64,000 bases of DNA from an uncultured bacterium (GTDB taxonomy: Bacteria > Pseudomonadota > Gammaproteobacteria > Burkholderiales > Burkholderiaceae_C). Shown piece by piece: positions 4,036-48,836 of the stretch. The notes beneath the pieces are model-generated. The model saw only the letters and a list, made by a program, of their open reading frames with translations, made no database searches and had not been told where the DNA came from. The position numbers were made by a program, and so were the translations under genes. The stretch's first letter is position 1. Every line of letters begins with the position of its first letter. The DNA lies in assembly GCA_963701725.1 (NCBI GenBank), contig CAVPAZ010000024.1:47580-111579 (forward strand), in the 5' to 3' direction.

Positions 4036-4112
4036 TCGTCGGCGCCGCGCGGCGGCCCGGCGTTTCGAAGCAGGAGCACCGATGCGTTTCGCTCCGCCTC
4101 TGCAGACTCACT

Positions 4113-24329: not shown

Positions 24330-24974
24330 TCAGGCGGCGAGCAAGCCGCGCGTCTCTATGAAGGCGATCACCTCGGCCAGTCCGGTGAGCGTCTTCAGGT
24401 TGGTCATCACGAACGGCTTCGTGCCGCGCATGCGCAACGTGTCGGTCTTCATCACGCCGAGGTCGGCGCCGACGTAGGGCGCCAGATCGGTCTTGTTGAT
24501 CACGAACAAGTCGCTCTTGGTGATGCCGGGGCCGCCCTTGCGTGGGATCTTCTCGCCGGCCGCGACGTCGATCACGTAGATCGTCAGGTCCGAGAGCTCC
24601 GGGCTGAAGGTGGCCGCCAGGTTGTCGCCGCCCGACTCGATGAACACGATGTCGGCGTCGGGAAACTTCTCGAGCATGCGGTCCACCGCCTCGAGGTTGA
24701 TCGACGCGTCCTCGCGGATCGCCGTGTGCGGGCATCCGCCGGTCTCGACACCCATGATGCGCTCGGCGTCCAGCGCCCCGGCGACGGTCAGCAGGCGCTG
24801 GTCTTCCTTGGTGTAGATGTCGTTGGTGACGACGACCAGGTCATAGCGGTCGCGCAGCGCCTTGCACAGCATCTCGACCAGCGTCGTCTTGCCCGAGCCG
24901 ACCGGGCCGCCGACGCCGACCCGCAGCGGTGGCAGCTTCTTGCGGCGGCCGGGAATGTGGTGAAGCACAGTCAT
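24330..24974 (-). CDS. ureG: Urease accessory GTPase UreG
   Basis: [16 protein letters not shown]...CPHTAIRED...ESGGDNL...NKTDLAP. Confidence 0.96.
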
Positions 24975-25043
24975 GGGGCGTCTTCTTTCGATTCGTTCGG
25001 ATCGGCGCAGGCCCTGGCCGGCGGGCGCTGCGCGTGACGGCCT

Positions 25044-25775
25044 TCAGGAGCGGAACAGCCGCGAGTACTGCAGCTCGTGCTGCGCCGACCCGATGGCGAG
25101 CATCGGCGTGCACACCTGCAGATCGCTGTCCGCCAGGCTCAGTGCGTGTGCTACGGCTGCCGGAATGCCTGCCGCCAGACGTGCCAGCATCCGCTGTGCC
25201 GCGCCCTGACCGAGCGGCACGGCCTTCATCGCCGCCTGCACCATGTTCTCGGCCCAGCCGAAGGCGAACGACAGCAGCGCGTCGCGCACGGTCGCGCCGG
25301 TCTGCGCCGCGGCGAGCGCGAACGCCACGGGCCAGGTCGGGGCCGGGTGCAGCGCCGCCAGCATGGCGATGCGCGGATCGCCGGCGTTCGCGCCGCTGCC
25401 GCCATTGCGCAGCCAGGCGACCAGAGAGCGTCCCATCTGCTCGCTCTGCTGGCGCAGCTCGGTCGACTCGCGCGTCTGGCGCAGCCAGTCGTTCAATGCC
25501 GAAATGCGTTCGAGGTCGGCCTGCCGCCATGCGGCGAACGCCCTTGCCGCAACGGCCATGTCGGCGCGCGCCAGGCCAAGGTGCAATTGGTCGACGAGCC
25601 AGTCACCGGCATCGGCCTCGCTCGTCACGCGGCGGGCCTCGACGGCCGACTCCAGCCCTTCGGAGTAGCTGAACGCGCCCACGGGCAGCGCCGGCGAGGC
25701 GAGCCACATCATCTCAAGCAGCGTGCGGGCCGTGGCAGCGTCGTCGATCATCGCTGCGGTTTCAGCGGCTCGCAC
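25044..25775 (-). CDS. ureF: Urease accessory protein UreF
   Basis: [24 protein letters not shown]. Position between ureE and ureG. Confidence 0.9.
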
Positions 25776-25814
25776 CAGACCGAAGCGCGAGTGAAATCGC
25801 GCAGCGCCGGTGTC

Positions 25815-26381
25815 TCAGGGGTGATCGTGTTTGCAGTCGGGGCCATGAACGTGCCCGTGCCCGTGGCCGTGATCGTGGCCGTGCGACCTGGCGGGTACCG
25901 CCCGCACCGCTTCGTGGCCGTGCCCGGCATGGCTAGCATAGGCCCCGCCTTCGGGCTCGAACGGCGCCAGCGCGTCGTTCACGGCGAGCTGCATCTGGCG
26001 CAGCATGTCGGCGAGCACGGGGTCGGGCTCCAGTTGCAGGCGGTCGGGCTGCAGTTCCAGCGGCACGTGCCGGTTGCCAAGGTGATATGCGGCGCGCAGC
26101 AGGTCGAACGGCGAGCCGTGATCGCCAACGCGCACCAACATCACCGGCTGCGGCGTGGCGATCACCTTGACGAGCGAACCGTCCTCGGCCACCAGCGCGT
26201 CGCCGCCGCGCACCACGCTGCCGCGCGGGAGGAACACGCCCAGCGTTCGGCCCTGCGAATCCTCGGCGTCGAAGCGGCTCTTCTGGCGCGTGTCCCAGTC
26301 GAGCTCGATCGTCGCGGCGCGCCTGAGCAGCGCGGGCGCAAGGCCGTGGGCCTGGGCGAGGAGCTTGTTGACGATCAGCAT
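25815..26381 (-). CDS. ureE: Urease accessory protein UreE (His-rich tail)
   Basis: MLIVNKLL...LLRAAYHLGNRHVPLEL, with the C-terminus HGHDHGHGHGHVHG. The start was chosen at 26381 inside ORF 25815..26423. Confidence 0.9.
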   Translation of the reverse strand: MLIVNKLLAQAHGLAPALLRRAATIELDWDTRQKSRFDAEDSQGRTLGVFLPRGSVVRGGDALVAEDGSLVKVIATPQPVMLVRVGDHGSPFDLLRAAYHLGNRHVPLELQPDRLQLEPDPVLADMLRQMQLAVNDALAPFEPEGGAYASHAGHGHEAVRAVPARSHGHDHGHGHGHVHGPDCKHDHP

Positions 26382-26427
26382 GGGGGGCTTCCGATGGCTG
26401 GGAGATCTGCGGGCCGCGTGCATTGTC

Positions 26428-27405
26428 TCAGGGAGGCGCCGCAGCGTTGCCGGCGGTCTTCGCCGGAGCGGGCGCGCCAGGGCCCGCCTGCAGGCTGGCC
26501 GCCACGTCTCGCCACACCGTCTGGTAGCGTTGCTCGAATTCCCGGTGCAGGCCGCTGTGCGAACCGCCCTCGAACATCTCGAGGCGCTTCACGCCGCTGG
26601 CCGCGTCGTAAAGCTGTCGTGTCTGCTGCGACGGCACCGTCTTGTCCGCGGTGCCGCTCAGGAACCACTTCGGCGCTTTGATGCTGCCGATCTTCTCGAT
26701 CGACGCGAACTGCTGCGTCACCAGTGGCGCCAGCACGACGCCGATGGCGCCATAGTCGCGCACCATTTCGGGCATCGAGGTCATGCCCGACTCGACGACC
26801 AGCGCGCCATAGGCGAGCGGCTCGCGATGCCGGAGCGCCAGTTCCACGGCCACTCCGCTGCCCATCGAATGCCCGAAAATCACGCGAGAATCCGGCCTTG
26901 GCGCGCGGCGCGTCAGTTCGGTCCACGCCACCTCGGCATCTTCCATGATGCTCTGCTCCGAGGGCAGCAGGCTCGTGCTTTCGCCCCAGCCGCGGTAGTC
27001 GACCGCCAGCACCGAGAGGCCGGCCGCGTGGATGGCGGCGATCTTCGGTCGGTTCTGAAAGATGTTGCGAAAGGTGCCATGCAGGTACAACACGATGGGT
27101 GCGGCCGGGTCGTCGGCCGGAATCCACAGCGCGCGCAGGCGTTGCGCCGCGGCGCCGGGTGGCGCATCGGCCGGTGCGTCGGCCGGTGCGTCGGCCAAAG
27201 CGGGCGGCATCTCCAGCCAAAGCGCTTCGTCCCGCCCGGTGATCGGCTTCCAATCGGCCATCGTGCCTGGCGCGGGCCGATAGCCCTTGGCGCGTTGCTG
27301 GGTATCGATCCAAGCGCAGCCCGCTGATGCCGCAACGCTCCACGCAACGACGGCTGCCGCCAGCCAGGCCGTTGCCCTCCCGATCAACCTCGATCCGCTG
27401 CCCAT
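26428..27405 (-). CDS. Alpha/beta-hydrolase lipoprotein
   Basis: Lipobox AASAGC, HG oxyanion YLHGT, nucleophile elbow GHSMGSG, and an ADAPADAPADAP linker repeat. Lies 46 nt upstream of ureE on the same strand. Confidence 0.75.
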   Translation of the reverse strand: MGSGSRLIGRATAWLAAAVVAWSVAASAGCAWIDTQQRAKGYRPAPGTMADWKPITGRDEALWLEMPPALADAPADAPADAPPGAAAQRLRALWIPADDPAAPIVLYLHGTFRNIFQNRPKIAAIHAAGLSVLAVDYRGWGESTSLLPSEQSIMEDAEVAWTELTRRAPRPDSRVIFGHSMGSGVAVELALRHREPLAYGALVVESGMTSMPEMVRDYGAIGVVLAPLVTQQFASIEKIGSIKAPKWFLSGTADKTVPSQQTRQLYDAASGVKRLEMFEGGSHSGLHREFEQRYQTVWRDVAASLQAGPGAPAPAKTAGNAAAPP

Positions 27406-27916
27406 GACTTCTTCATCGATGCTTCACCGTTTCAGATCCACTTTCGCCGCGCTGCTCGCCGCCGCCTGCGGGCAGAGCGCCCTGGCGCAGACCGATTCCT
27501 TCGACGGGTGGGAGCTGAGCCTCAGCCCCTACACGATCCACTTCCATCCCAGCGACGAACACAAGCCCGTGGTCCAGGTCGGGCTGATGAAGGGTCTGGA
27601 AGACCGCTGGCTCGCCGGCGGCGCCGTGTTCTCGAACTCGTTCGGCCAGCCCAGTGCCTATGTCTTCGGCGGCCAGCGCTACGTCAATCCATTCGGTTGG
27701 GAGAAATGGTACCTGCAGTGGACGGCAGGCATCCTGTACGGCTATGTCGGTCAGTACAAGGACAAGGTGCCGTTCAACTACAAGGGCTTCTCGCCCGGGC
27801 TCGTGCCGAGCATCGGCTACCAGTTCACCGACCGCATCTACGGCGAGCTCGACCTGCTCGGCAATTCCGCGCTGATGTTCACGGTCGTGTTTCCGATTCC
27901 CAAGGGCGGGTTCTGA
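27404..27916 (+). CDS. Small outer-membrane beta-barrel protein (PagP-like architecture)
   Basis: Signal peptide ending SALAQ, alternating aromatic/hydrophobic strands and a C-terminal F. The resemblance to PagP is from memory only. Confidence 0.5.
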   Translation: MTSSSMLHRFRSTFAALLAAACGQSALAQTDSFDGWELSLSPYTIHFHPSDEHKPVVQVGLMKGLEDRWLAGGAVFSNSFGQPSAYVFGGQRYVNPFGWEKWYLQWTAGILYGYVGQYKDKVPFNYKGFSPGLVPSIGYQFTDRIYGELDLLGNSALMFTVVFPIPKGGF

Positions 27917-27934
27917 CGGGGGGAAGGTCGGGTC

Positions 27935-29015
27935 TCAATGGCTGGCCTCGAACTCACGCATGTACGCCACTAGCGCCTCGACGCCCTCGACAGGCATCGC
28001 GTTGTAGATCGACGCGCGCATGCCGCCCACCACGCGGTGGCCCTTGAGCTGCACCATGCCGCGCGCCTGCGCACCCTTCAGGAAAGCGTCGTCGAGCGTC
28101 GCTTCCTTCAAGAAGAACGGCACGTTCATCAGCGAGCGGTCTGCACGCGCGACCGGGTTCGAATAGAACGCGGTGGAGTCGAGGTAATCGTAGAGCAGCG
28201 CCGCCTTCACGCGGTTGCGCGCCTCCATCGCGCTCAACCCTCCCTGCGCCTTGATCCAGCGGAACACCAAGCCTGCGATGTAGATCGAGTAGGTGGCCGG
28301 CGTGTTGAACATCGAGTCGTTGTCGGCCTGCTGCTTGTAGTCGAAGGCCGACGGCGTGATAGCCAGCGCCTTGCCGAGCAGGTCGTCGCGCACGATCACG
28401 ATCGTCGCGCCGGCCGGGCCGATGTTCTTCTGCGCACCGCCGTAGATCAGGCCGTAAGCGGCTGACGTCCACCGGGCGCGACATGATGTTGCTCGACATG
28501 TCGGCCACCAGCGGCACGCTGCCGGTGTCGGGCGTCCAGTGGTACTCGACGCCGCCGATCGTCTCGTTCGAGCAGATGTGCACGTAGGCGGCGTTCGGGT
28601 CGAGCTTCCATTCGGCCTGCCTGGGCACGCAGGTGAAGTTGCTCGCTTCGGCGCTGGCGACGACGTTGACCGTGCAGTACTTGCCCGCTTCCTGGATCGA
28701 CTTCTTCGACCACTCGCCGGTGTTCACGTAGTCGGCGCTCGTGTGCCCGCGCAGCAGGTTCATCGGCACGATCGCGTTCTCGCCGATCGCGCCGCCCTGC
28801 AGGAACAGCACCTTGTAGTTGGCCGGCACGGCCAGCAGCTCGCGCAGCAGGCTCTCGGCCTCGGCGTGGATGGCGATGAACTCCTTGCCGCGGTGGCTCA
28901 TCTCCATCACCGACATGCCCGAGCCGTGCCAGTCGAGCATCTCGTCGGCGGCCTGGCGCAGCACCGGTTCGGGCAGCGTGGCGGGGCCGGCACTGAAGTT
29001 GAAGACGCGGGTCAT
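27935..29015 (-). pseudogene. serC: Phosphoserine aminotransferase SerC, with a single frame break near 28,458
   Basis: The N-terminal part [19 protein letters not shown]...MSHRGKEF...[15 protein letters not shown] is in ORF 27954..29075. The C-terminal part ...IVRDDLLG...MNVPFFL...[12 protein letters not shown] is in ORF 27935..28399. Confidence 0.9.
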
Positions 29016-29088
29016 CGGGGATCTCCGTCGGTTAGCGGGAAGCATACCGCGCGTCCGCCGGGGTTCCTTCGGCACACAGCGGTGGGCG

Positions 29089-31794
29089 TCAGCGCCACCC
29101 GTGGCGCGCGCTGTAGCGGTGCTTCATCCACTGCACAGCCAGGCCGTAGGCGAGCAGCATCGCCGCGAGCCAGCCGAAGTAGGTCAGCGGCAGCGCCTGC
29201 AGGCGCAACGCCGGCGCCAGGGCGCTGGCAGGCAGCAGCAGTCCGGCCGCGACGACCACCATGCTCGTCACCATCAACGGCGCCGCGGCCCGGCTGTCGA
29301 TGAACGGCCGGCCGCGGGTGCGGATCATGTGTACCACCAGCGTCTGCGAGAGCAGCCCCTCGACGAACCAGCCGCTCTGGAACATCGTCTGCGTCGCGAG
29401 TGTCTGGGCGTGGAAAACGGTCCACATCAGCACGAAGGTCAGCACGTCGAACAGCGAGCTCACCGGTCCGAAGCTCAGCATGAAGCGCAGCAACTCCTGC
29501 GGTGCCCAGTGCTGTGGCGACTGCAGCGCCTCGTCGTCGACGTTGTCGAACGGGATTGCCGTCTGCGACAGGTCGTACAGCAGGTTCTGCACCAGCAGGT
29601 GGATCGGCAGCATCGGCAGGAAGGGCAGGAAGGCGCTCGCCACCAGCACCGACAGCACGTTGCCGAAGTTCGAGCTCGCCGTCATGCGGATGTACTTGAG
29701 CATGTTGACGAAGGTGCGCCGACCCTCGATCACGCCCTGCTCGAGCACGGCAAGGCTCTTTTCGAGCAGCACGATGTCGGCCGCCTCCTTGGCGATGTCC
29801 ACCGCCGACTCGACCGAGATGCCGACGTCGGCAGCGTGCAGCGCTGCGGCGTCGTTGATGCCGTCGCCCATGAACCCGGTCACGTGACCGCTGGCGCGCA
29901 GCGCTCGAACGATGCGCTCCTTGTGCAGCGGGTTCAGCTTGGCGAACAGGTTCGCCGATTCGACAGCCAGCGCCAGCTCGGCATCCGTCATCCGCTCGAT
30001 GTCGCTGCCGCGCAGCACGCCGGTGATGGCGAGGCCCACATCGCCGCAGATCTTGCGGGTCACGAACTCGTTGTCGCCGGTCAGCACCTTGGTCGCAACG
30101 CCGCGCGCGGCTAGCGCCTGCAAAGCGGGTCCGGCCGACTCCTTCGGCGGATCGAGGAAGGCGATGTAGCCGACCAGCGTCATGTCGCGCTCGTCGGCGA
30201 CGCGGTAGGTGGCTTGCAGCGGTGGCAGTTCGCGCAGCGCCACCGCGACGACGCGAAAGCCGTCCTGGTTCAGGCCCTCGGTCATGCGCGCCTGCTGCCC
30301 GCGCAGCGAATCGGTCAGCGCCTGCACGCCGGCGCCGCGTCGAACCTGCGAGCAGGCGGCCAGCACCTCCTCGACCGCACCCTTGCAGATCAGCAGGTGG
30401 CGATCGTCGCGCTCGCTCATCACCACCGACATGCGGCGGCGCTCGAAGTCGAACGGCAGTTCGTCGATCTTGCGGAAGTTCTCGGCCACGCCGAGCTTCA
30501 GGTGCAATTCGGCGTGTTCGAGCACGGCCAGGTCGAGCAGATTGCGCAGCCCGGTTTGGTAGTGGCTGTTCAGCCATGCGTACTCGAGCACCTCCGGCGA
30601 GTCGGCGCCGTCGACGTCGAGGTGGCGCTTGAGGACCACGCGGTCCTGCGTCAGCGTGCCGGTCTTGTCGGTGCACAGCAGGTCCATCGCACCGAAGTTC
30701 TGGATCGCGTCGAGCCTCTTGACGATCACCTTCTTTCGCGCCAGCGTCACGGCGCCACGGGCCAGCGTCGAGGTCACGATCATCGGCAGCATCTCCGGCG
30801 TCAGGCCGACTGCAATCGACAGCGCGAACAGCAGCGCCTGCAGCCAGTCGCCCTTGGTGAAACCGTTGATCAGGAACACCACCGGCACCATCACCAGCAT
30901 GAAGCGGATCAGCAGCCAGCTCACGCGGTTGATGCCGGTCTGGAATGCGGTGGGCGTGGCTTCGATATGCGTCGCGTGCTCGGCCAACGTGCCGAAGTAC
31001 GTGCCCCGGCCGGTGCCGATCACGAGCGCCGTCGCCGAGCCGCTGACCACGTGCGTGCCCATGAAGCACAGGTTGGCTGCAGCGAGTGGGTCGTCGAGCG
31101 TGACGGCGGGAAGCTCGCCGGACTTCTCCACCGGCAGCGATTCGCCCGTCATCGCCGACTGGTTCGTGAACAGGTCCCTCGCCACCAGCAGGCGCAGGTC
31201 GGCCGGGATCATGTCGCCGGCGGCCAGGCGCAGCACGTCGCCGGGCACCAGTTGCTCGACGGGCAGCTCGGCCTCGTGCGGCGCGCCGCCGTGAGCCCGC
31301 CGCAGCACGGTCGCCTTGTTGCCCACGCGCCCGCGAAGCGCATCTGCGGCGCGCTGCGAGCGCGCCTCCTGCACGAAGCGCATCAGTGTCGACAGCGCCA
31401 CCATCGCCAGGATCACCGTGGCCGCGTGCAGGTCCTGGGTCAGCCCGGAAACCGCAGCGAGCAAGCTGAGCAGCAGGTTGAACGGGTTGCGGTAGCAGTG
31501 CCACAGGTGCAGTGGCCAGGCGACCTGTTCCTCGCGCGCAATTTCGTTGGCGCCGCTGCGGCGCCGGATCGCCCCTGCCTGGCTGGCGCTCAACCCGTCG
31601 ACGTTGCTATGCAGCCGGTGCAGCAACGCTGCAGTGTCGGCCCGGGCCGACTCGAGGAGCCTCGCCGACAAGTCGCCGGGCAGCGGCTGGCCCCAATGCC
31701 GGCCGCGCAGCATCTCGGGTACCGCCGAGCGCTGGAACAGCCGGCGCAGGGCCTTGCGCCCCCGATGAGGCGCGAGGTTCAGCTGCTGTAGCAC
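29089..31794 (-). CDS. mgtA: Magnesium-translocating P-type ATPase
   Basis: Intact 901-aa ORF with [23 protein letters not shown] and [11 protein letters not shown]. Confidence 0.93.
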
Positions 31795-33533
31795 TTCAGC
31801 ACGAACTCGCCGGGCGCGTCACCCAGCGCCTCGCTGCGCGGCAACGGGCGTGCCACCTGTTTGCTGGACGAATGGGCCTCCAGCCACTGTTGCCAGGCTG
31901 GCCACCAAGAGCCTTCATGGTGCGTTGCGCCGCGCTCGTAGTCGTCGGGTTCGATCCACGGGCCGTGCGCAGGCCGGGTGGCGATCCGGTAGCTGCGGTG
32001 CGCGTGGCCGGGCTCGGAGACGATGCCGGCGTTGTGGCCTCCGCTGGCGAGCACGAACGTGATCTCGGCTTCACTCAGCAGGTGCAGCTTGTAGACCGAA
32101 CGCCACGGCGACACGTGGTCGCGCGCCGTGCCGACCATGAACATCGGCAGCCGCAGGTCGGCCAGCGATACCACCTGCCCCTGCCGCCCGCCGATGCGGA
32201 AGCTGCCGGTCGCCAGCGCGTTGTGCAGATAGAGCGAGGTCAGGTACTCGTTGTGCATGCGGGCCGGCATGCGCGTCGTGTCGGCGTTCCAGGCCATCAG
32301 GTCGCTCGGTTGCTCGCGCTCGCCCATCAGGTACTCTCGCATGCGGCGCGTCCACACCAGGTCGCGCGAATGCAGGAACTGGAATGAACCGGCCATCTGG
32401 TCGCCGGTGAGATAGCCCTGATCGCGCATCAGCTCGCGCAGGTAGGCGACCTGGCTTTCGTCGATGAACAGGCCCAGTTCGCCGGGCTCGGAGAAGTCGG
32501 TCTGCGCAGCAAGCAGTGTCGTCGTCTTCAGGGGCGCGAGCCGACCCGCATCGGACACGCTGCCGTTGTTCCCCAATGCGGCCGCGGCGATGGACAGCAG
32601 CGTGCCGCCGAGGCAGTAGCCCACCGCATGCACCGGCGTCGGCTTGGGGCTCAGCGCTGCGATCGTCCTGAGCGCATCGAAAGGTCCCAGGCGCAGGTAG
32701 TCGTCCATCGTCAGCCCGTGGTCGGCCGCGTCGGGGTTGAGCCAAGACAGCATGTACACCGTGTGTCCCTGCTCAACGAGGTAGCGCACCAACGAGTTGT
32801 GCGGTGACAGGTCGAGGATGTAGTACTTGTTGATCCACGACGGCACGATGAATACCGGCTCCGGGTGCACGGTCCGGCTCTGCGCGTCGTAGCGGATCAG
32901 CTCGATCAGCCGGTTGCGCAGCACCACCTTGCCGGGGGTCGCGGCCACGTCGCGGCCGACCTTGAAATGCGCCTCGCGCTGCGCGGCCTGCACGGCGGCG
33001 GGGTCGGCCGACAGGTCCTCCATCCAGTTGCCGAGGCCGCGCAACAGCGGGCCACCAAAGGCCTTCGCGTTCTCATGCAGCATCACCGGATTGGTGGCCA
33101 GCCAGTTGGCAGGCGTCAGCACACCGAGCGTCTGGCGGGCGAAGACATCCGTCATCTCGGCGTGGTGGCGCGTCATGCCGGGCAGGCGTGAGGCTTCGTG
33201 CCACCAGGTCTCGACGTTGCGAAAACCAGAGCGCATCACGTTGAACGGCCACGCCGCCCAGGCTTCATGGCGAAATCGCGGGTCGTCGTCGGCCGCGCCG
33301 GCTGGCAGCAGATCCTCGCCGCGCAGCGTGTCCTGGCCCAGTTGCATCGCCAGCGCGGCCAGGTCCATCTGCTTGCCGGGCGAGACGCCCAGGTGCCACG
33401 CCCAGTCGGCCAAGGCAAGCGACAACGAGACCGGCGACAAGCCGCCGGTCAGCGGCAACGCTGCGACGTGCAACTCGCGATCGAGTCGTTCGGTGGGAGT
33501 TTCCTGGTGGCGCTCGGTGGTGGAGCGGTTCAT
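31779..33533 (-). CDS. phaC: Class I poly(3-hydroxyalkanoate) synthase
   Basis: Intact 584-aa ORF with VPSWINKYYILDL, the lipase-box GYCLGG and ASGGHNAG. Its 3' end overlaps the mgtA start by 16 nt. Confidence 0.92.
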   Translation of the reverse strand: MNRSTTERHQETPTERLDRELHVAALPLTGGLSPVSLSLALADWAWHLGVSPGKQMDLAALAMQLGQDTLRGEDLLPAGAADDDPRFRHEAWAAWPFNVMRSGFRNVETWWHEASRLPGMTRHHAEMTDVFARQTLGVLTPANWLATNPVMLHENAKAFGGPLLRGLGNWMEDLSADPAAVQAAQREAHFKVGRDVAATPGKVVLRNRLIELIRYDAQSRTVHPEPVFIVPSWINKYYILDLSPHNSLVRYLVEQGHTVYMLSWLNPDAADHGLTMDDYLRLGPFDALRTIAALSPKPTPVHAVGYCLGGTLLSIAAAALGNNGSVSDAGRLAPLKTTTLLAAQTDFSEPGELGLFIDESQVAYLRELMRDQGYLTGDQMAGSFQFLHSRDLVWTRRMREYLMGEREQPSDLMAWNADTTRMPARMHNEYLTSLYLHNALATGSFRIGGRQGQVVSLADLRLPMFMVGTARDHVSPWRSVYKLHLLSEAEITFVLASGGHNAGIVSEPGHAHRSYRIATRPAHGPWIEPDDYERGATHHEGSWWPAWQQWLEAHSSSKQVARPLPRSEALGDAPGEFVLKCYSS

Positions 33534-33664
33534 GGCGGCGCGTAGGCGATCTCAGCACCCGTGCGTGATCGACTGGGAAGCCCATTCTGCGGCGGTCGAG
33601 ATTGCCCGGCATTGATTCACGCCAACGCCTGTCGCCTTTGCAGCGCAGGCCCGGCTGGCGTGGC

Positions 33665-35419
33665 TCAAAAGAGGAAATACCGCTGTGCCATCGGCAGCAC
33701 CGCCGCCGGCTCGCAGGTCAACAGCACGCCGTCGGCGCGCACTTCGTAGGTCTGGGCGTCGATCTCCATCGCCGGCAGGTAGTCGTTGAGCAACATGTCG
33801 CGCTTGGTGACGTGGCGGCAGTGCTTCACTGCGGAAATACGCTTGTGCAGGCCCAGCGTCTCGCCCAGATCGCCCGCCAGCGCGGCCTGGCTCATGAAGG
33901 TGATCGAGCCACGCGCCAGCGCGCCGCCGAAGCTGCCGAACATCGGCCGGTAGTGCACCGGCTGCGGCGTCGGGATGCTGGCGTTCGGGTCGCCCATCGC
34001 GGCCATCGCGATGAAGCCGCCTTTCAGGATGAGTGAAGGCTTGACGCCGAAGAAGGCCGGCTTCCAAAGCACCAGGTCGGCCCACTTGCCGACCTCGATG
34101 CTGCCCACCTCATGCGCGATGCCGTTGGCGATGGCGGGGTTGATCGTGTACTTGGCGACGTAGCGTTTGGCGCGCGAATTGTCGTTGCGCGAAGAATCGG
34201 CCGGCAGCCCGCCGGGCCGCGTGTCGCCTTGCAGGCTGCCGCGCTGGACCTTCATCTTGTGCGCCGTCTGCCAGCAGCGCAGCACGACCTCGCCGACGCG
34301 GCCCATCGCCTGGCTGTCGCTCGAGAACATGCTGATCGCGCCCAGGTCGTGAAGCACGTCCTCGGCGGCGATGGTCTCGCGCCGGATGCGGCTTTCGGCG
34401 AACGCGAGGTCTTCGGCGATGTTCGCATCGAGGTGGTGGCAGACCATCAGCATGTCGAGGTGCTCGTCGACGGTGTTGACGGTGTAGGGCATCGTCGGAT
34501 TCGTCGACGAGGGCAGGAAGTTCGCCTCGCCGACGACGCGCAGGATGTCGGGCGCGTGGCCGCCGCCGGCGCCCTCGGTGTGGAAGGCGCACAGCGTGCG
34601 GCCCTTCGTCGCGCGAACAGTGTCCTCGACGAAGCCCGATTCGTTCAGCGTGTCGCTGTGGATCGAGACCTGGGTGTCGGTCTCTTCAGCCACCGCCAGG
34701 CAGGCGTCGATGGCCGAGGGCGTCGTGCCCCAGTCCTCGTGCAGCTTGAGGCCGATCGCGCCGGCCTCGACCTGCTGGCGCAGCGCCTCGGGCCGGCTCG
34801 AGTTGCCCTTGCCGAGGAAACCGAGGTTCATCGGAAAGGCTTCGGCTGCCTGCAGCATGCGCGCCAGGTTCTCGGGCCCCGGTGTGCAGGTGGTGGCAAA
34901 CGTTCCGGTCGCCGGACCGGTGCCGCCGCCGAGCATCGTCGTCACGCCGCTCGCTAGCGCCTCCTCGATCAGCTGCGGGCAGATGAAGTGAATGTGGCAG
35001 TCGATGCCGCCGGCGGTGACGATCATGCCTTCGGCAGCGATCACTTCGGTGCCCGGGCCGATCACGATGTCCACGCCCGGTTGCACGTCGGGGTTGCCGG
35101 CCTTGCCGATCGCGGCGATGCGCTGCCCGCGCAGGCCGATGTCGGCCTTGACGATGCCCCAGTGGTCGAGGATCAGCGCGTTGGTGATCACGCAATCCAC
35201 CGCCTCGCCGTGGCCCGGCCCGTTGACGCGCTGGCTCTGGCCCATGCCGTCGCGGATGGTCTTGCCGCCGCCGAACTTCACCTCTTCGCCATAGCCTCCG
35301 GCGCGCAGCGTGTAGTCCTGTTCGACCTCGATGATCAGTTCGGTGTCGGCCAGGCGCACCCGGTCACCGACCGTGGGGCCGTACATCTCGGCGTACGCGC
35401 GGCGGTGGATCATCGGCAT
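33665..35419 (-). CDS. ureC: Urease alpha subunit
   Basis: [18 protein letters not shown]..., [39 protein letters not shown]. The start was taken at MPMIHRR (35419) within ORF 33665..35494. Confidence 0.96.
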
Positions 35420-35490
35420 CACAGCGCTCCCTGGACCAGGCCGCGAAAGCCGACCACACGCCGCTCGCCGGCGCTCTTGCGGACTTCCGT
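35419..35490 (-). pseudogene. ureB: Urease beta subunit, 3'-terminal remnant only (last ~17-23 codons)
   Basis: The frame ending in the TGA that shares its A with the ureC ATG reads (TEVRKS)[17 protein letters not shown]. It is preceded by TGATGA (35491-35496) and no further UreB/UreA sequence. Confidence 0.7.
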
Positions 35491-35618
35491 TCATCAGCTT
35501 GGAGGTAGTGTTCGACGGCGAGCCGGATTACCTGCGACACCGGCAGTTTCTTGGCGACGGCCTTCGCCTTCACGTCTTCCAGGGTCTTGTCGTTGAGATA
35601 GAGACTCATTTGCGGCAT
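35490..35618 (-). CDS. Ribbon-helix-helix (CopG/antitoxin-like) protein. Its own stop is missing because the ORF runs across the junction.
   Basis: GAGGAGG lies 8 nt before ATG 35618. [43 protein letters not shown] shows the beta-strand plus two-helix RHH pattern. As given, the ORF continues to 35364 through ureB'/ureC sequence. Confidence 0.6.
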
Positions 35619-35751
35619 GAAACTCGCCTCCTCGTCTGATATACCATCACCATGGTAGAGAGCGTGTGCCGGAAAGTAAAGGGGATGTGCGGTAGCTGGC
35701 TTCCCCGGAACTTGTCGCGATGAAACGCCGTGAGCTGCGCCGGCGCGTGGA

Positions 35752-36214
35752 TCAGGCCTGGCGCGCCGGCGCGACCGGCACCTTGACGACGATCTTCCGG
35801 ACGGTGGTCGCGGCGCCGCGGCTGAGCTTGGGCATGTGGCCGTCCTGGGGGAAGAAGACGGCGAACGACCCGGGCCGCAGCGTGACGAGATCCACTTCGC
35901 CCTCGAGCGTCTCGAAGTCGGCGGCTTCGTCCCAGGCGGTCGGCCGTGCACGCGGCGCGGCTGCAGACGCCGATCTGCTCGATGCCGCTGGCGACGACCT
36001 GGACGTCGATGTGCCGGCGGTGGCACTCGATGAAGCCTTCGCCCGGCGCCAGCGTCCGGTAGCTGCTGACGAGCGCGAAGCACCCGTCGCCGAGGTCGTG
36101 GCGGCCGTCGGCGAGCGCCGCGAGGTCCGTCGCGTCGAGGAAGTCCGCCACGCGCGCGAAGAGCGGGTGCGCGCCGAGGTAGTCGCGGAAGCGGTCCAGC
36201 GTGTCGAGGATCAT
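35752..36214 (-). pseudogene. YhcH/YjgK/YiaL-family (DUF386) protein, with one frame break near 35,945
   Basis: MILDTLDRFRDYLGAHPLFARVADFL...GFIECHRRHIDVQVVASGIEQIG is in ORF 35606..36727. It is followed in another frame by AWDEAADFETLEGEVDLVTLRPGSFAVFFPQDGHMPKL...* (stop 35752-35754). Confidence 0.7.
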
Positions 36215-36233
36215 GGTGCGCCCGGACGCAGGC

Positions 36234-36886
36234 TCATGCGCGGGCCACGGCCCGCTCCGCGGCCTCGCAGAGCGCCTTGGACGGGTGGGCGCCGACGAGC
36301 AGCTCGCTGCCGCCGAAGACGAACGCCGGGACGGCCGTGATCTTGCGGCGGTGCGCTTCCGCGGTCCCCTCGCGCAGCGCGGCCTCGCCGCTCGCCGGCC
36401 GCGAGGGCGGCGTCCAGGCGCGCGGCGTCGAGCCCGACGTCGGCGAAGATCCGGCGCAGCACCGCGGGGTCGCCGATGTCGCGCAGTTCGCCGAAGTTCG
36501 CGCGGAAGAGCGCGTGGTGCAGCGCCTCGAAGCGCTCCGGGCTTTCGGCCTGGACGATCGCGCTCGCCGCGAGCGCGCGGTGCGTGTTGGCGAGCAGCGA
36601 CTCGGGGGTGCGCGTGCGCGAACTCGATCCCCTCGGCGGCGGCCTGCTGGCGCAGCCGCGCCATCGCGGCCGCGAGGTCGTCGGGGTCGTAGCCGAGCGC
36701 CGAGAGCGGCATCCCCGCCGGCGGCACCTCGGGGTGGATCTCGAAGGGGCGCCACGCGATCGCGAGCGCGATCCGGCCGGCGAGCGCGGCGCGGGCCTTC
36801 TCGAGGCGGACCGCCCCGATGGAGCACCACGGTCAGGTGTAGTCGCTGAAGACTTCGACGCGCACGACGGGCGGTTCGTGGCTCAT
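36234..36886 (-). pseudogene. DsbA/FrnE-like thiol-disulfide oxidoreductase. It has an in-frame TGA at the first Cys of CxxC (candidate Sec) and two frame breaks (~36,610 and ~36,395).
   Basis: GGAGGAGGAG lies 6 nt before ATG 36886. The frame reads MSHEPPVVRVEVFSDYT-TGA-PWCSIGAVRLEKARAAL...WRPFEIHPEVP..., the same phase as ORF 35606..36727. Later parts (ESPERFEALHHALF..., ITAVPAFVFGG...) are in ORFs 36211..36462 and 36234..36830. Confidence 0.7.
36801..36819 (-). promoter_or_regulatory. SECIS-like stem-loop 13 nt downstream of the in-frame TGA
   Basis: The mRNA reads UGA-CCGUGGUGCUCCA-UCGGGGCG-GUC-CGCCUCGA. The stem is 8 bp with one G-U pair, and the apical-loop G lies ~22 nt after the UGA. 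Confidence 0.3.
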
Positions 36887-36907
36887 GGGGTGCTCCTCCT
36901 CCCCGCG

Positions 36908-36936
36908 ATTCTGTGCCGTCCGGACAGGGGAGTCAA
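36908..36936 (-). promoter_or_regulatory. Sigma-70-type promoter in front of the DsbA-like gene
   Basis: The minus strand reads TTGACT (36936-36931), a 17-nt spacer, then CAGAAT (36913-36908), ~20 nt upstream of the SD. Confidence 0.45.
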
Positions 36937-36998
36937 ACCCGCGCCGCGGTTTCCTCGTCCCCCTTCGATGGCGCCGCCCGCGCCCGTTCGTGTTCCCA

Positions 36999-37032
36999 CT
37001 CCCCCATGGTGGCCGGGCGCACCATGGGGGAG
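36999..37032 (-). terminator. Perfect 13-bp inverted repeat hairpin after the truncated upstream ORF (no U-tract)
   Basis: ctcccccatggtg (36999-37011), an 8-nt loop, then caccatgggggag (37020-37032). On the minus strand it begins 34 nt downstream of the stop at 37066. Confidence 0.4.
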
Positions 37033-37065
37033 CATCGTCCTTCGCACCCGCCCGCGAAGCCGCGA

Positions 37066-37359
37066 TCAGATCGTCGTGTAGCCGCGGCCGCCGCGGCGCC
37101 GGCGGATCGTCCCGCCGTCGTCGTCGGCCGGCCGGCTGTCCTGCCGCGCCAGCCGGAAGGCGCACAGGTGGAGCAGCACCCCGTCGGCCGCCAGCGCGCC
37201 GCCGGAGATCGACCGGGAGCGAAAGCGCAGGTCCTCGCCGAGGCCCGCGGCCGGGAACGAGTCCACCTGCGCCTCGGCGGCCTGGCGCAGCAGCGAGGCG
37301 ACCTTGGCGCGCGTGGCGGGGGCCGAAGGCGGGACGCGCAGCTCCTCGATCGCGTCGAT
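37066..37359 (-). pseudogene. 5'-truncated ORF of unknown function (C-terminal 97 codons only)
   Basis: The frame is open right up to the 16S junction: IDAIEELRVPPSAPATRAKVASLLRQAAEAQVDSFPAAGLGEDLRFRSRSISGGALAADGVLLHLCAFRLARQD...*. I do not recognise the family. Confidence 0.4.
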
Positions 37360-38125
<766 letters not shown>

Positions 38126-38821: not shown

Positions 38822-40108
38822 CTATCCGACCAACCGCACCACGTGCTGCTGCCTCGCGCCCCGCCGGACGACGAACACGCGGCCGCCTATGGCGACCGCC
38901 TGCGTCAACCGCTCGCGCTCGTTCGTCACGCGGCGGTTGTTCACGGACACGCCGCCCCCCTTCACGAGCCGCATGGCCTCGCTCTTCGACGGCGCCAGCG
39001 CGGTCTTCACGAGGACGTCCGCGATGCCGACGCCCTCGCCCTGGAACGCGTCCGCCCCCCATTCGGTCGACGGGACGTCCTCGAAGACGTCGAGGACTTC
39101 GTCGGCCGTCAACTCGGAGATCCCTTCGCCGAACAGCAGTTGTGATGCGCGCTCGGCCCGCTGCACGGCGCCCTCGCCGTGCACCAGCGCCGTGACGGCC
39201 CGCGCGAGCACGCGCTGCACCTCGCGCCGTTCGGGCGCGCGCGCCATCTCCTCGCCGAGCGCCTCGACTTCCTGCTGCGTGAAGAACGTGAAGTACTTCA
39301 GGTACGTCTGCACGTCGCGGTCGTCCGTGTTCAGCCAGAACTGGTAGAAGCGGAAGGGCGACGTCCGGCCCGCATCCAGCCATACCGTGCCCGCTTCGGT
39401 CTTGCCGAACTTCACGCCAGCGGCGGTGGTGACCAGCGGCATCACGAGCCCGTGCGCCCGGGCGCCGCCGCGCAGTTTCCGGATCAGGTCGCATCCGGCG
39501 GTGATGTTGCCCCACTGGTCACTGCCACCCAGTTGCAGCGTGCAGCCGTAGCGTTCGTTCAGGACCAGGAAATCGTAGGCTTGCAGCAGCAGGTAGCTGA
39601 ACTCCGTGTAGGAGATGCCGTCTTCGGCCTCGAGACGCCGCCGGACGGCCTCCTTTCCAAGCATGTAGTTCACGGTGAAGTGCTTGCCGACGTCACGGAG
39701 GAACGACATCAGGTCGACCGTCGCGAGCCAGTCGGCGTTGTCGACGATCTGTGCCGCGTTGGAGGCGCGTTCGAAGTCGAGGAACCGCGACAACTGCTCC
39801 CTGATGCCGACGAGGTTCGCGGCCACCTGCTCGCGGGTCTGCAGTTGGCGCTCCGGCGTCTTGCCGCTGGGGTCGCCTATCAGCCCCGTGCCGCCGCCGA
39901 CGATCGCGATGGGCCGGTGTCCGGCGCGCTGCATCCGCGCGAGCGCCATGATCGGGAGCAGCGACCCCACGTGCAGGCTCGACGCCGTCGGGTCGAAGCC
40001 GATGTAGCAGGTCAGCGACTGCGTCGCCAGCGCGTCGGCCAGCCCCTCCGTCGCCTCGTAGACCATCCCGCGCCATTTGAACTCGTCGAACACACTTGTC
40101 ACGGTCAC
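38822..40108 (-). CDS. tyrS: Tyrosine--tRNA ligase
   Basis: Intact 428-aa ORF with FDPTASSLHVGSLLP (HIGH region), KFGKTEAG (KMSKS region) and a C-terminal S4-like domain. Confidence 0.95.
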   Translation of the reverse strand: MTVTSVFDEFKWRGMVYEATEGLADALATQSLTCYIGFDPTASSLHVGSLLPIMALARMQRAGHRPIAIVGGGTGLIGDPSGKTPERQLQTREQVAANLVGIREQLSRFLDFERASNAAQIVDNADWLATVDLMSFLRDVGKHFTVNYMLGKEAVRRRLEAEDGISYTEFSYLLLQAYDFLVLNERYGCTLQLGGSDQWGNITAGCDLIRKLRGGARAHGLVMPLVTTAAGVKFGKTEAGTVWLDAGRTSPFRFYQFWLNTDDRDVQTYLKYFTFFTQQEVEALGEEMARAPERREVQRVLARAVTALVHGEGAVQRAERASQLLFGEGISELTADEVLDVFEDVPSTEWGADAFQGEGVGIADVLVKTALAPSKSEAMRLVKGGGVSVNNRRVTNERERLTQAVAIGGRVFVVRRGARQQHVVRLVG

Positions 40109-40439
40109 GATCCGTCGCTCCTTCGCGGCCTGCGCCGCGCTGCGCGGGGGCCGCGTCGCAGTCCCGCCCCCACACTACTCGGACAGGACAGCATAGCTGC
40201 CCCGCGCGCGGAACACACGTCCTGCGGGCGCGCGCCCACTGACCGCGGGGAGCCCGCTCCACGCGATCCCGATCTCGTCGGACGCGCGATGCCGCGGTCG
40301 CGCCGGGCGGACGCGAAGCGTGGGCGGGCGCAACCCGCCGTGACGCCAGGCCCTCCGTGGTCAGCGGAGCCAGTCTGCCGGCAGGCGCTCATGCCCCCTA
40401 TCGTCCGCGCGCGTCACGAAGGCGTTATAGGATCCGTCC

Positions 40440-41295
40440 ATGGGTCCCGGCCACGATCCGACCCGGCGCCGAGTGTTGGAATTGGCGACGGCCGTCGTCG
40501 TGGGCGCGGTCACCGGCTTCAACGCCGACACGGTGATTCACGAACAGTCGGCCCTCGGCGTGACGCAGCAGGCGGTCGATCTTCCCGCGTGGCCGGCCGC
40601 CATGGACGGCCTGACCGTAGGATTCTTGACGGACCTGCACCGCAGCGGCACGGTGTCGCGCGAGCTGGTCGATCGCGCCGTGGCCGAACTGTTGTCCCTT
40701 CGGCCCGGCCTCATCGTCCTCGGTGGTGACTACGTCTCGTTCGGCGAGCGCGCGTACGTGGACTCCGTCGCCGAGTCGCTGGCGCGCCTCCGGGCGCCGC
40801 ACGGCGTCTTCGCGGTGCTCGGCAACCACGACGACGAGCGTTTCGTACCGGCCGCGCTGGCTCGCGTCGGCATCGAGGTGCTGAGGGACGAGCGAACCCG
40901 GATCACGGTGGCCGGGCACGCTCTCGACCTGGTCGGCGTGCGCTACTGGACCCGCCGCGTGGCGGAGATCGCGGCGATGGTCGACCCGCAAGCAGCCGGC
41001 GCGCATCCTGCTCGCGCACGACCCGCGGCGCCTGCGCGAGGCGGTGGACCTGGGGTTTCCCCTCGTGCTGTCGGGGCACACCCACGGCGGCCAGGTCGTG
41101 CTCCGGGCTCGGGCCGTGGCGGCCCGCAAGTTCCCCATCGCGTCTGGGCTGCTGGCCCGCGACCGCACGCAGTTATTCGTCAGCCGAGGCATCGGGACGG
41201 TGTATGTCCCGGTGCGCTACAAGTGCCCGCCCGAAGTGGCGCTGGTCACACTCCGGCGAAGCGATCCCCAGCCACCCCAGCGGAATCCCGCATAG
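40440..41295 (+). pseudogene. Metallophosphoesterase (Tat-signal, YkuE-like), with a frame break near 40,985
   Basis: RRRVLEL twin-Arg N-terminus, then GFLTDLH, LGGDYV and LGNHD in ORF 40440... LAHDPRR...LSGHTHGGQ is in ORF 41044..41295. Confidence 0.75.
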
Positions 41296-41935
41296 GGGCG
41301 TCTATGAACGCCGCGACGAACCGGCGTCCCTCGACCACGCCATCCCGGCTGAAGAACCAGGGCGATGGCGCGGGGATACATCCGGTGCTCCTCGACGAGG
41401 ATGCGCGCCGCGAGCAGCGTCCTCGGTGTCGTCGTCGCGCACGGGCACGGCGGCCTGAGCCACGATGGGACCCGGCGTCGAGATCGGCGTTGACGAAATG
41501 GCACCGTGGCGCCGCTGACCTTGACGCCGTGCAGCAGGGCCTGCCGCTGCGCGTGCAGCCCGGGGAACGCGGGCAGCAGCGACGGGTGGATGTTGAGGAT
41601 GGCGTCTGGGGAACGCGTCGATGAAGGCTGCGCCGAGCAGCCGCATGAACCCCGCGAGGCAGACGAGGTCCACCGCGTGGGCCCGCAGGCGCGCCACGAG
41701 GGCGCGCGTCGAAGGCCGCGCGGGTGGGGAACTCGCGATGGTCGAGCGACGAGCGTCGGAACGCCGGCACGCCGTGCGCGCTCGAGGCCGCGGCGCGTCG
41801 GCGAGGTTGGAGATCACGAGCCGCGATGGTGGCGTCGAGTTCGCCCGCGGCGATGGCGTCGATGATCGCCTGCAGGTTGCTGCCCCGTCCGGAGATGAGG
41901 ACGCCGAGGCGCCGCGCGGTATCCCCGCGAGACAC
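41246..41935 (-). pseudogene. purN: Phosphoribosylglycinamide formyltransferase, with multiple frame breaks
   Basis: RLGVLISGRGSNLQAIIDAI (ORF 41246..41935), VDLVCLAGFMRLL and GPIVAQAAVPVRDDDTED (ORF 41302..41955), and ILVEEHRMYPRAIAL (ORF 41217..41504). The 3' end is approximate. Confidence 0.75.
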
Positions 41936-41944
41936 CGCGCCGAC

Positions 41945-42998
41945 TCAGACGACATAGCGCAGCCTCGCCATCGCCCGGCCGACGACCTCGCCGATCACGA
42001 GACCTCGCGTTCCCCGGCGGCCGCGCAGAGCCGCTCGCACGGGCCCGCGACATCGTCCGCGGCCACCGCGACGATCATGCCGATACCCATGTTGAAGGTG
42101 CGGCAGCATGTCGTCGCGGGGCACCTCCCCGCCGTCGTTGCAGGAACGCGAACAAGCGGCGGTGACGTCCACGAGGCGGTGTCGATGCACCGCCGACCTG
42201 CCGGCCGGCAGGATGCGCGGCAGGTTCTCCGTGATGCCGCCGCCCGTGATGTGCGCGAGTCCCTTGACGAGCGGTACCCCGCCTCGCATCGACGAGGCGG
42301 CCAGAGCACGGGCAGGTAGGAGCGGTGCGTCGCGAGCAGGGCCTCGCCGACGGTGCCCCCAGCGCGGGCACGTCGGTGTCGAGCTGCCACCGAGCTTGCT
42401 CGAAGACGAATGCGGCGGGCGAGCGAGTAGCCGTTGGTGTGCAGCCCCGAGGACGGCAGCCCGATCAGCACGTCGCCCGGCGCATGGCCGCGCCCGTCGA
42501 TCACGCGCGCCCGCGTCCACGCTGCCCGACGATGAACCCGGCGAGGTCGTACTCGCCGTCGGCATAGAAGCCTGGCATCTCGGCCGTCTCGCCGCCGAGC
42601 AGCGCGCACCCGTTCGCGCGGCACGCCCCGGGCGATGCCCTCGACGACCGCGACGGCGACGTCGGGCGACAGCCGGCCCGTGGCGAGGTAGTCGAGGAAG
42701 AACAGCGGGCGGGCGCCCTGCACGAGGATGTCGTTGACGCAGTGGTTGACGAGGTCCTCGCCGACCGTGTCGTGCCGGTTGGCGAGGAACGCGACCTTCA
42801 GCTTGGTGCCGACGCCGTCGGCGCTGGCGACCAGCACGGGCCCGTCCGCGGCGTGAGGGCTCGAGCGCGAACAGCCCGCCGAAGGCTGCCGAGCTCCGAG
42901 AGCACGCCCGGCGTGAACGTGCCTCGCGCGAGCCCCTTGATGCGGCGGACCACCTCGTGGCCCGCGTCGATGTCCACGCCGCTCGAACTGTAGTCCAT
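41945..42998 (-). pseudogene. purM: Phosphoribosylformylglycinamidine cyclo-ligase (AIR synthetase), with multiple frame breaks
   Basis: [21 protein letters not shown] (ORF 42798..42998). [52 protein letters not shown] and [11 protein letters not shown] are in ORF 41995..43830. Confidence 0.8.
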
Positions 42999-43028
42999 GC
43001 CTCAGGCTCGGCTGCCACGCTGCGCCGC

Positions 43029-44566
43029 TCAGGCAGGTGCCTTCGGCTCGCATCGGGCGCCCCGAGCCGACCGCGGGCGCCGTCGGGCTACGGTGCCGAG
43101 CCGCGTCCGGCACTGCGTCGGCTGCGCCCGTCGCTGCCTGGCCGTTCGGTTGCTGGAGCTTGAGCGCGAGCTGCAGGTACTCTCGCGATCGCGCGGGAAG
43201 GCGACGGGATAGTGTGCCGGTGTAGCACGACGTGCAGTAGGCACTGCCGCGAGGTCGCCGACGCCCGCCAGCAGGCCCTCGAGGCTCAGGTACGCGAGGG
43301 TGTCGGCGCCGAGGTACCTGCGCACCTCGTCGAGCGAGTGGGTCGCGGCGATCAGTTCGCGTGCGGCTGCGGCGTGTCGACGCCGTAGAAGCACGGGGAG
43401 ATGGTCGGCGGGCAACTGATGCGCACGTGGACTTCGCGCGCGCCGGCGGCGCGCACCATCTTGACGATCTTGCGGCTCGTCGTGCCGCGGACGATCGAGT
43501 CGTCGATGAGCACGACCCGCTGGCCCTCCAGGATGCTCGCGGACGGGGTTGAGCTTCACCCGGACGCCGAAGTGGCGGATCGACTGCTGCGGCTCGATGA
43601 ACGTGCGCCCGACGTAGTGGTTGCGGATGAGCCCCATGCGGAAGGGCATGCCGGCCTCCTCGGCGTAGCCCGAGCGCCGCGCACACGCCGGAGTCGGGCA
43701 CGGGCACGACGACGTCGGCGGCCACGCCGATCTCGCGCGCGAGCTGCCGGCCGAAGGCCGTCCGGGCCTCGTTGACGCTGCGTCCGAACACGAGGCTGTC
43801 GGGCCGCGAGAAGTACACGTGCTCGAACACGCAGTGCGCCAGCGGCTGCGGCGCGAACGGCGTGATAGCTGCGCAGCCCGTGCTCGGAGATCACGAGGAT
43901 CTCGCCCGGCTCGACGTCGCGCTCGTACGTGCGCGCCGATGAGGTCCATGGCGCACGTCTCCGAGCAGACGATGTAGCGCGTCGCCGAGGCGGCCCGAGC
44001 GCGAGCGGGCGGAACCCGTGCGGGTCGCGCGCCGCGATCAGGCGGTCGCGCGTCAGCAGCAGGAGCGAGTAGGCGCCGGTCACCTGCGCCAGCGACTCGA
44101 CGACCGCCTGCTCGGCCGGTCGGGCCTGCGACCGGGCGTACAGGTGCAGCACCACCTCGGTGTCGCTCGTGGTCTGGAAGATGGAGCCCTGCGCGCACGA
44201 GGTCGTGGCGCAGCTCGCCCGCGTTGACGAGGTTGCCGTTGTGGCAGACGGCGATCTGCCCGTGCGCGCAGTCGATGAGCAAGCGGCTGCGCGTTCTGCA
44301 GCTCGCTGTCGCCGGCGGTGGAGTAGCGCACGTGGCCGATGGCCGCGTGGCCCGGCAGCGCGGCCGAGCGTCGTCTCGTCGAAGACGTCGGCGACGTAGC
44401 CCATCGCGCGATGCACGCGGAGCCGCGCGCCGTCCGCGGTGGCGATGCCGGCGCTCTCCTGCCCGCGGTGCTGCAGCGCGTAGAGCCCGAGGTAGGCGAG
44501 GTTGGCCGCCTCGGGGTGCCCGAAGATGCCGAAGACGCCGCACTCCTCTTGTAACTTGTCGAACAT
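43029..44566 (-). pseudogene. purF: Amidophosphoribosyltransferase, with many frame breaks and an uncertain 3' end
   Basis: MFDKLQEECGVFGIFGH...ALQHRGQESAGIA and IFQTTSDTEVVLHL are in ORF 43556..44674. Later parts are in ORFs 43029..44807 and 41995..43830. Confidence 0.75.
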
Positions 44567-44861
44567 TGATGCTCCCCGGGTCCCGTGCCGCCGCGCGTCG
44601 CCTTCCGCATGAAGAAGATCGCCAGATCGCGATGTCGACGACGCCCGACGCGCGACGAGGGCGCCGGCGAGCATGGTGCCTGCGCGCGTCTCGTCGGCAG
44701 AGAGCGTCCCTGCTCCCGATCAGAGGCCGACGAACAGGAACATCGTGGCCGCCGAGATCATCAGCGACCGGCCGATGACCGCGAAGTTGCTCTGCGGGCG
44801 GCGGCATGCGTGCTCTCCGAGTTCGTTCGAACCGCGACGGCCTCGTGCGGGCGTCGGGCCG

Positions 44862-46195: not shown

Positions 46196-46206
46196 GCGGT
46201 GCGCCT

Positions 46207-47685: not shown

Positions 47686-48836
<1,151 letters not shown>

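Follow-up and report, generated by a model that had tools for sequence, protein, structure and literature searches.

In the 64,000-nucleotide stretch of contig CAVPAZ010000024.1 analysed here (hereafter the window), the urease gene ureB breaks off directly upstream of an intact ureC and is followed by unrelated DNA. Sequence comparisons make it very probable that this truncation exists in no living genome and marks the left one of two breakpoints in a chimeric contig, in which DNA of two unrelated soil-type bacteria, one of the Burkholderiales and one of the Acidobacteriota, was joined; the most likely cause is a chimera at the level of the assembler or of the reads. The window would then consist of three pieces: the chromosome of an Ideonella/Rubrivivax-like member of the Burkholderiales (positions 1-35,472), 1.9 kb of an Acidobacteriota-like genome (35,474-37,359) and, from 37,360 onwards, the chromosome of a member of the Vicinamibacterales (Acidobacteriota). 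We favour an artefact because the flanks are syntenic housekeeping DNA of different phyla, because a second blunt joint, running through a 16S rRNA gene, lies 1.9 kb from the first, and because both the composition and the density of errors step at the first joint.

On the minus strand, the ATG of ureC (35,419-35,417) shares one base with the TGA (35,421-35,419) of a frame encoding the C-terminus of UreB, an overlap that a first-pass annotation made from the sequence alone had already described. This ureB remnant comprises the last 17 codons and the stop codon (35,419-35,472, minus strand). Over 51 nt (35,423-35,473) it is 86% identical to the ureB gene of a 331-kb contig (L002; ENA ERZ25039527 contig_14713) that carries a 93% identical UreC, and 16 of the 17 residues match. 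As L002 is also about 90% identical to the window from ureC to ureE, we regard the identification of the remnant as UreB as more than a chance match. The remainder of the urease genes was searched for by tblastn of the whole window with UreA, the N-terminus of UreB, UreJ, UreD and UrtA, taken from L002 and a second contig, L001. No homology was found (best match 65 aa, 32% identity, E = 0.003), in line with the earlier statement that nothing of ureA, ureD or the rest of ureB follows upstream. The window thus does not hold a complete ureA-ureB-ureC structural operon, and ureB is represented by the 17 codons only.

The first joint was located by a three-way alignment of the window with L002 (ureB) and with a contig, L009, that carries an intact homologue of the adjoining ribbon-helix-helix (RHH) gene. 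At the joint, the minus strand reads ...CAAGCTGATGAACGGAAGTCCGCAAGAGCGCCGGCGAGCGGCGTGTGGTCGGCTTTCGCGGCCTGGTCCAGGGAGCGCTGTGATGCCGATGATCCAC...; it tracks the RHH gene through ...TCCGCAAGAGCG and ureB from GCGCCGGCGAGCGG... on. The crossover falls within a GCG common to both partners, without filler bases, which places joint 1 at 35,472-35,474, resolved to within 3 nt. The BLAST alignments end at 35,477 (L009) and 35,473 (L002), and both ureB and the RHH gene are cut. The abrupt junction proposed in the first-pass annotation is therefore real, but its position and the length of the remnant had to be revised. The TGATGA sequence at 35,496-35,491 is indeed present in the frame of the ureB remnant; it lies, however, about 20 nt away from the breakpoint. 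Likewise, the 20 to 23 surviving codons assumed at first are reduced to 17, since the residues TEVRKS, initially read as UreB, together with TGATGA correspond to codons 42-48 of the RHH gene translated in another frame, as seen from its intact homologue P0361.

The RHH gene starts with an ATG at 35,618 and, as noted before, its open reading frame (ORF) crosses the breakpoint without a stop codon of its own, ending only at 35,366-35,364 inside ureC. The Pfam RHH_1 profile (PF01402) matched this ORF with E = 0.003 and 17.9 bits, below the cutoff of 20.5 bits. A phmmer search of the full database with the first 45 residues recovered a small family of RHH proteins of the CopG/Arc/MetJ type, 81-82 aa long (P0361, P0362, P0365, P0366 and P0372) that share the conserved tail ...PLGG..W..H.ERT.AD..RG; the best match was P0361 (81 aa, 93% identity, E = 1.4e-18), and no Pfam annotation of the tail was found, the intact homologue on L009 having no Pfam match on record. 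Residues 1-49 are 93% identical to P0361, and L009, which carries the P0361 gene, is 87% identical to the window at the nucleotide level from 35,657 to 35,477. Homology to the family ends at codon 49, so that the window keeps 49 of 81 codons (35,472-35,618, minus strand), whereas the 32 C-terminal residues and the stop codon of the family are gone. In contrast to the family, the in-frame continuation in the window is ureB and ureC read out of frame, and the read-through tail to 35,364 is meaningless; its GAT codons are also atypical for the local GC content. We considered the possibility that the RHH gene is complete by way of a 'W..RERCDADD' tail within this continuation, but this candidate scored 18.9 bits (E = 0.28) and was outscored by four chance matches elsewhere in the window. 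The 'ERCDADD' resemblance was therefore rejected as a coincidence at chance level, its residues being conserved ureB/ureC codons out of frame.

Upstream of the RHH gene we observed a perfect palindrome, TACCAT-GGTG-ATGGTA (35,642-35,657, minus strand), which is probably the operator/promoter of the gene. The alignment with L009 starts at its outer end (35,657), and both the palindrome and the Shine-Dalgarno sequence are conserved. The palindrome region is also present at L009 576-600, where the homology with the otherwise unrelated L009 begins. The palindrome is likely to be the operator through which a small, mobile RHH cassette regulates itself.

The second joint lies 1.9 kb from the first, at 37,359/37,360, where the 5′ half of a bacterial 16S rRNA gene (37,360-38,125, minus strand, about 750 nt) abuts a fragment of an ARPP-1 family gene; both genes are cut. 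The 16S rRNA gene was recognized by the Rfam model SSU_rRNA_bacteria (705 bits, start near 38,122); Rfam lists the match as 'model 1-1533' over 835 nt, which masks the truncation. Comparison with the 16S rRNA genes of two further contigs (L003 and L004, both from ENA ERZ25039459) showed that the window is identical to them up to ...GGCATTGACGC (37,360) and is unrelated to rRNA thereafter. The gene with its leader is 93% identical to L003, and the cut falls at about position 750 in E. coli numbering. A three-way alignment that included the relative of the other side, L005, showed that ACGC is common to both sides and that filler is again absent. Neither the 3′ half of the 16S rRNA gene nor a 23S, 5S or tRNA gene follows the 5′ half at joint 2.

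Breaks of this kind could also arise if separate contigs, for example those of a contaminated bin, had been joined end to end without N spacers, with 35,472 and 37,360 as former contig ends. In favour of this, each joint interrupts a gene on either side, a 16S rRNA gene broken midway is a classic contig end, and at 1.9 kb the middle piece is as long as a contig of minimum length. We nevertheless consider such a concatenation unlikely. The UreC (P0001) and TyrS (P0121) proteins of the window are each listed in the protein collection on a contig of 123,523 bp, presumably the same one, a length well below that of a concatenated bin and above that of the pieces. This listing also means that both joints probably lie within one deposited sequence. 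Moreover, the dense frameshifts described below point to a long-read assembly, in which breaks inside 16S rRNA genes are not typical, and by our estimate microhomology of 3-4 nt at both joints is expected in about 1% of arbitrary joins.

The DNA on the left of joint 1 is of the Burkholderiales type. The intact ureC gene (33,665-35,419, minus strand) encodes a urease alpha subunit of 584 aa with the Pfam domains Urease_alpha and Amidohydro_1, and its N-terminus aligns with that of its relatives. UreC is 93% identical to P0004 and 85-88% identical to UreC proteins of named Ideonella and Rubrivivax; the named relatives in the database in the range of 85-93% belong to Ideonella, Rubrivivax and Burkholderiaceae. 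Further genes on the same strand, at 24,330-33,533, were identified by Pfam as a phaC-like gene, mgtA, an aminotransferase gene, a hydrolase gene and ureE, ureF and ureG, the last three occupying 24,330-26,381. Like ureC, these three urease genes are intact, with full profile coverage. Over at least 9.5 kb, from 25,939 to 35,421, the window is collinear with L002 (90-93% nucleotide identity), and the match runs on for another 51 nt into ureB, up to 35,473. L002, an Ideonella/Rubrivivax-like Burkholderiales contig, has the order urtABCDE-ureA-ureB-ureC-phaC-like-mgtA-EamA-aminotransferase-...-hydrolase-ureE-ureF-ureG, with ureA and ureB intact. It thus shares with the window ureC, the 7-kb insert and ureEFG in collinear order. 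Upstream of the remnant the window differs from L002: the urt transporter, ureA, ureD and all other parts of ureB are missing, with foreign DNA in their place. Farther left, in the first 23 kb, the window holds fabH..fabG-acpP-fabF-rpoE-mucB-degP-lepA-lepB-DUF4845, an order that we take to be typical of betaproteobacteria.

Several features of this region were observed in passing. About 7 kb (26,382-33,664, minus strand) with the phaC-like synthase gene, the gene for an MgtA-type P-type ATPase, the class-V aminotransferase gene and the alpha/beta hydrolase gene separate ureC from ureE-ureF-ureG. As L002 has the identical arrangement, this separation is native to this Burkholderiales lineage. 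At about 29,030-29,088 the window lacks the EamA transporter gene (about 1.1 kb) that stands between mgtA and the aminotransferase gene in L002. The aminotransferase gene carries a frameshift at about 28,457 and therefore looks like a C-terminal fragment of 154 aa. Antisense to the 5′ part of ureC, Rfam reports a match to the Helicobacter antisense RNA 5_ureB_sRNA (34,960-35,258, plus strand, 90.6 bits), which most likely reflects the conserved coding sequence of the urease alpha subunit and not an sRNA gene.

On the right of joint 2, the relatives are of a different phylum. The intact tyrS gene (38,822-40,108, minus strand, assigned by Pfam) encodes a Vicinamibacterales-like protein with 90% identity to P0122, and its named relatives are Vicinamibacterales/Acidobacteriota. 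This gene heads a syntenic block of metallophosphoesterase-purN-purM-purF-purB that extends to about 47.5 kb; from 37,360 to about 48,800 the window is collinear with L003 and L004 (80-93% nucleotide identity). In these contigs the order is purB, purF, purM, purN, metallophosphoesterase, tyrS, about 6 kb without called genes, SSF and purL. The start of the gene-less stretch aligns with the 16S rRNA gene of the window, and the stretch is presumably an rRNA operon. A MiaB-like radical-SAM gene, purD and others follow farther right in the window. Between the neighbour of the M16 peptidase gene and the MiaB-like gene, about 6.6 kb (48,800-55,460) are absent from the collinear L004. Among its contents are a TPR protein and an ORF of 887 aa with a TIG/IPT domain; the segment reflects either an insertion or deletion that sets the relatives apart or one more fault of assembly. 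UreC and TyrS, synteny and composition all bear out the taxonomic difference between the sides that the first-pass annotation had drawn from gene content and order.

The middle piece (35,474-37,359) contains, in addition to the RHH gene, three damaged genes. A YhcH/YjgK/YiaL (DUF386) gene (35,752-36,214, minus strand) carries one frameshift at about 35,935-35,942: the Pfam match is divided over two frames, tblastn follows it in frames -1 and -2, and the nucleotide identity to L005 is 88%. Among GTDB species representatives, the best YhcH relative reaches 55% identity and the relatives are taxonomically scattered. A DsbA-like gene (36,234-36,886, minus strand) has two frameshifts and an in-frame TGA, with Pfam DSBA positions 11-78, 78-146 and 149-186 in three frames. 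The third is the ARPP-1 family gene at joint 2, of which a 3′ fragment with the last 98 codons remains (37,066-37,359, minus strand; Pfam ARPP-1 positions 228-297 of 297; 84% nucleotide identity to L005). Its 5′ 700 nt are gone, and the match to L005 (7,144-7,433) ends at window position 37,360. The middle piece is Acidobacteriota-like and possibly stems from the genome found on the right side or from one related to it; its origin is deduced only from its composition and from the metagenomic relatives L005 and L009.

In the DsbA-like gene, the TGA (36,833-36,835) stands in place of the expected first cysteine of the CxxC motif (FSDYT-TGA-PWC) and is followed by a long hairpin. It could denote a selenocysteine (UxxC) protein or simply be a wrong base in a segment rich in errors. 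By its folding energy the hairpin, a candidate selenocysteine insertion sequence (SECIS), does not stand out from shuffled sequence (z = -0.16).

Tetranucleotide composition and separate sequence comparison of the two sides had been named in the first-pass annotation as ways to examine the junction, and both separate the sides. Against independent reference contigs, the left side correlates with L002 at r = 0.994 and with L003/L004 at 0.94, while the right side correlates with L004 at 0.985 and with L002 at 0.943. For the middle piece, r was 0.966 with L005 and 0.900 with L002; L005 itself correlates with L003/L004 at 0.97. In a sliding 4-kb profile the sign changes between 34 and 38 kb. The composition switches at the ureB joint, and joint 1 is therefore the boundary between the phyla. 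Sequence comparison agrees, with L002 (Burkholderiales) as the relative of the left side and L003/L004 (Vicinamibacterales) as those of the right.

We also counted frame-breaking errors, using intact proteins of relatives as probes together with tracking of the coding phase. Only one frame change was found in about 11 kb on the left (24.3-35.4 kb), compared with three frame changes and one in-frame stop in the 1.9-kb middle piece and at least 18 events in 7 kb at 40.4-47.5 kb; tyrS had none. Across joint 1 the rate thus rises from about 0.1 to about 2 per kb (on the right, about one per 0.4-0.6 kb), and at the left-hand rate the Poisson probability of at least three events in 1.9 kb is about 7e-4 by our calculation. 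This jump is an indirect sign, a proxy for a step in coverage. The coding phase shifts every 200-400 nt at 40,400-49,500, at 35,500-37,360 and at about 500-4,500. For instance, purB, purF, purM, purN and the M16 peptidase and metallophosphoesterase genes are each spread over 2-6 frames, and fabD, fabG and fabF are broken too, while the region from 9 to 35.4 kb and tyrS are free of frameshift clusters. These phase shifts resemble the many indels of a consensus built at low read depth, not pseudogenisation, and are what long-read assemblies with thin coverage typically show. Split genes also occur in the related contigs L002-L004, whose names are Flye-style. The position of frameshifts relative to homopolymer runs was not diagnostic, as short G/C runs are found everywhere at 70% GC. 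Few genes were called on the right side by a codon-usage model trained mostly on left-side genes; we rejected an absence of genes as the reason, since this is due to the frameshifts and the different composition.

A genuine rearrangement or horizontal transfer, in which microhomology-mediated illegitimate recombination placed Acidobacteriota DNA beside ureC in a Burkholderiales chromosome (or the reverse) and destroyed ureA/ureB and with them the urease, is very unlikely. It would be compatible with the short microhomologies at both joints, with pieces that abut without adapter or filler, and with the intact state of ureC and ureEFG. However, the flanks are long syntenic housekeeping blocks (fab, lepA and lepB on one side; tyrS, pur and 16S on the other) and do not resemble cargo; two blocks of this length, whose synteny is in each case with a separate phylum, cannot both belong natively to a single chromosome. 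Half of a foreign 16S rRNA gene is included, and the step in error density is not expected within one replicon. Furthermore, a search for repeats and the Pfam annotation revealed no insertion sequence (IS) element, integrase, direct or inverted repeats or filler at either joint. The joint was found in no other assembly by look-up of a 50-mer spanning it, although the same strains are not present in those collections either. If the joint did exist in a living cell, microhomology-mediated illegitimate recombination would have brought tens of kb of Acidobacteriota core DNA (half a 16S rRNA gene, tyrS and the pur cluster) into a Burkholderiales chromosome, with deletion of ureA/ureB and inactivation of the urease; we give this scenario hardly any credence.

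That ureB is a natural pseudogene, formed by deletion or insertion within one Burkholderiales genome and flanked by native DNA, is extremely improbable: relatives do differ by nearby indels, such as the EamA gene mentioned above, but the DNA to the right of 35,474 is Acidobacteriota-like in composition and has its relatives (L005, L009, L003 and L004) outside the Burkholderiales, the RHH gene is cut as well, the 5′ half of the 16S rRNA gene shares 93% identity with its counterparts in L003 and L004, both Vicinamibacterales-like, and neither an IS element nor repeats are present that would fit a mobile-element insertion or a deletion within one genome.

A chimeric contig thus accounts best for the two joints: different organisms stand on the two sides, and the breakpoints are arbitrary with respect to genes and bear no marks of a biological insertion. 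Among the three origins left side by side in the first-pass annotation (rearrangement, assembly chimera or concatenation), the chimera is now favoured, concatenation is disfavoured and a real rearrangement is very unlikely. The contig would have arisen in a metagenome assembly of noisy long reads, where one or two chimeric reads, formed when fragments of different cells were ligated during library preparation, may have been the sole support over a thinly covered stretch, and the assembler would hence have walked out of one genome into the other.

Some observations weigh against a chimeric origin or are neutral towards it. The sequencing platform is itself deduced only from how dense the frameshifts are and from related contigs having Flye-style names. 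Within each genome, errors are spread unevenly: the left side is frameshifted at 0.5-4.5 kb, and tyrS and the 16S rRNA gene on the right are clean, so that the proxy for a coverage step is imperfect. The 3-4 nt of microhomology at both joints (GCG and ACGC) fit illegitimate recombination in vivo equally well. Finally, a 50-mer spanning the joint was absent from genome_contigs and metagenome_contigs, and a 31-mer at the overlap of the ureB stop and the ureC start was absent from metagenome_contigs; these negative results carry no information, since the strains themselves were likewise missing from other assemblies.

If the contig is chimeric, the truncated ureB is of use solely as a quality-control flag. 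With two phyla combined in it, the 123.5-kb contig would contaminate any bin or genome that includes it. It would also yield a false call of a urease pseudogene and a false truncated 16S rRNA gene, and could be mistaken for a case of inter-phylum gene transfer. The RHH 'fusion' ORF (an RHH-UreB/UreC read-through) and an N-terminally extended ureC ORF of 609 aa would be by-products without biological meaning. We suggest that the contig be split at 35,472-35,474 and at 37,359/37,360, and that no inference be drawn from it on urease loss in this Burkholderiales lineage, on gene fusion or on horizontal transfer.

Chimeric reads, interspecies ones among them, have been reported to make up 1.7-8.2% of nanopore data sets (PMC10025935). 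As a point of difference, the two joints in the window show no adapter remnant. In other respects the window resembles interspecies chimeric contigs that grew out of chimeric long reads: its flanks come from different taxa, its breakpoints fall without regard to where genes begin or end, and the quality of the consensus drops locally. The short third piece between the two joints is likewise similar to what is seen in multi-segment chimeric reads.

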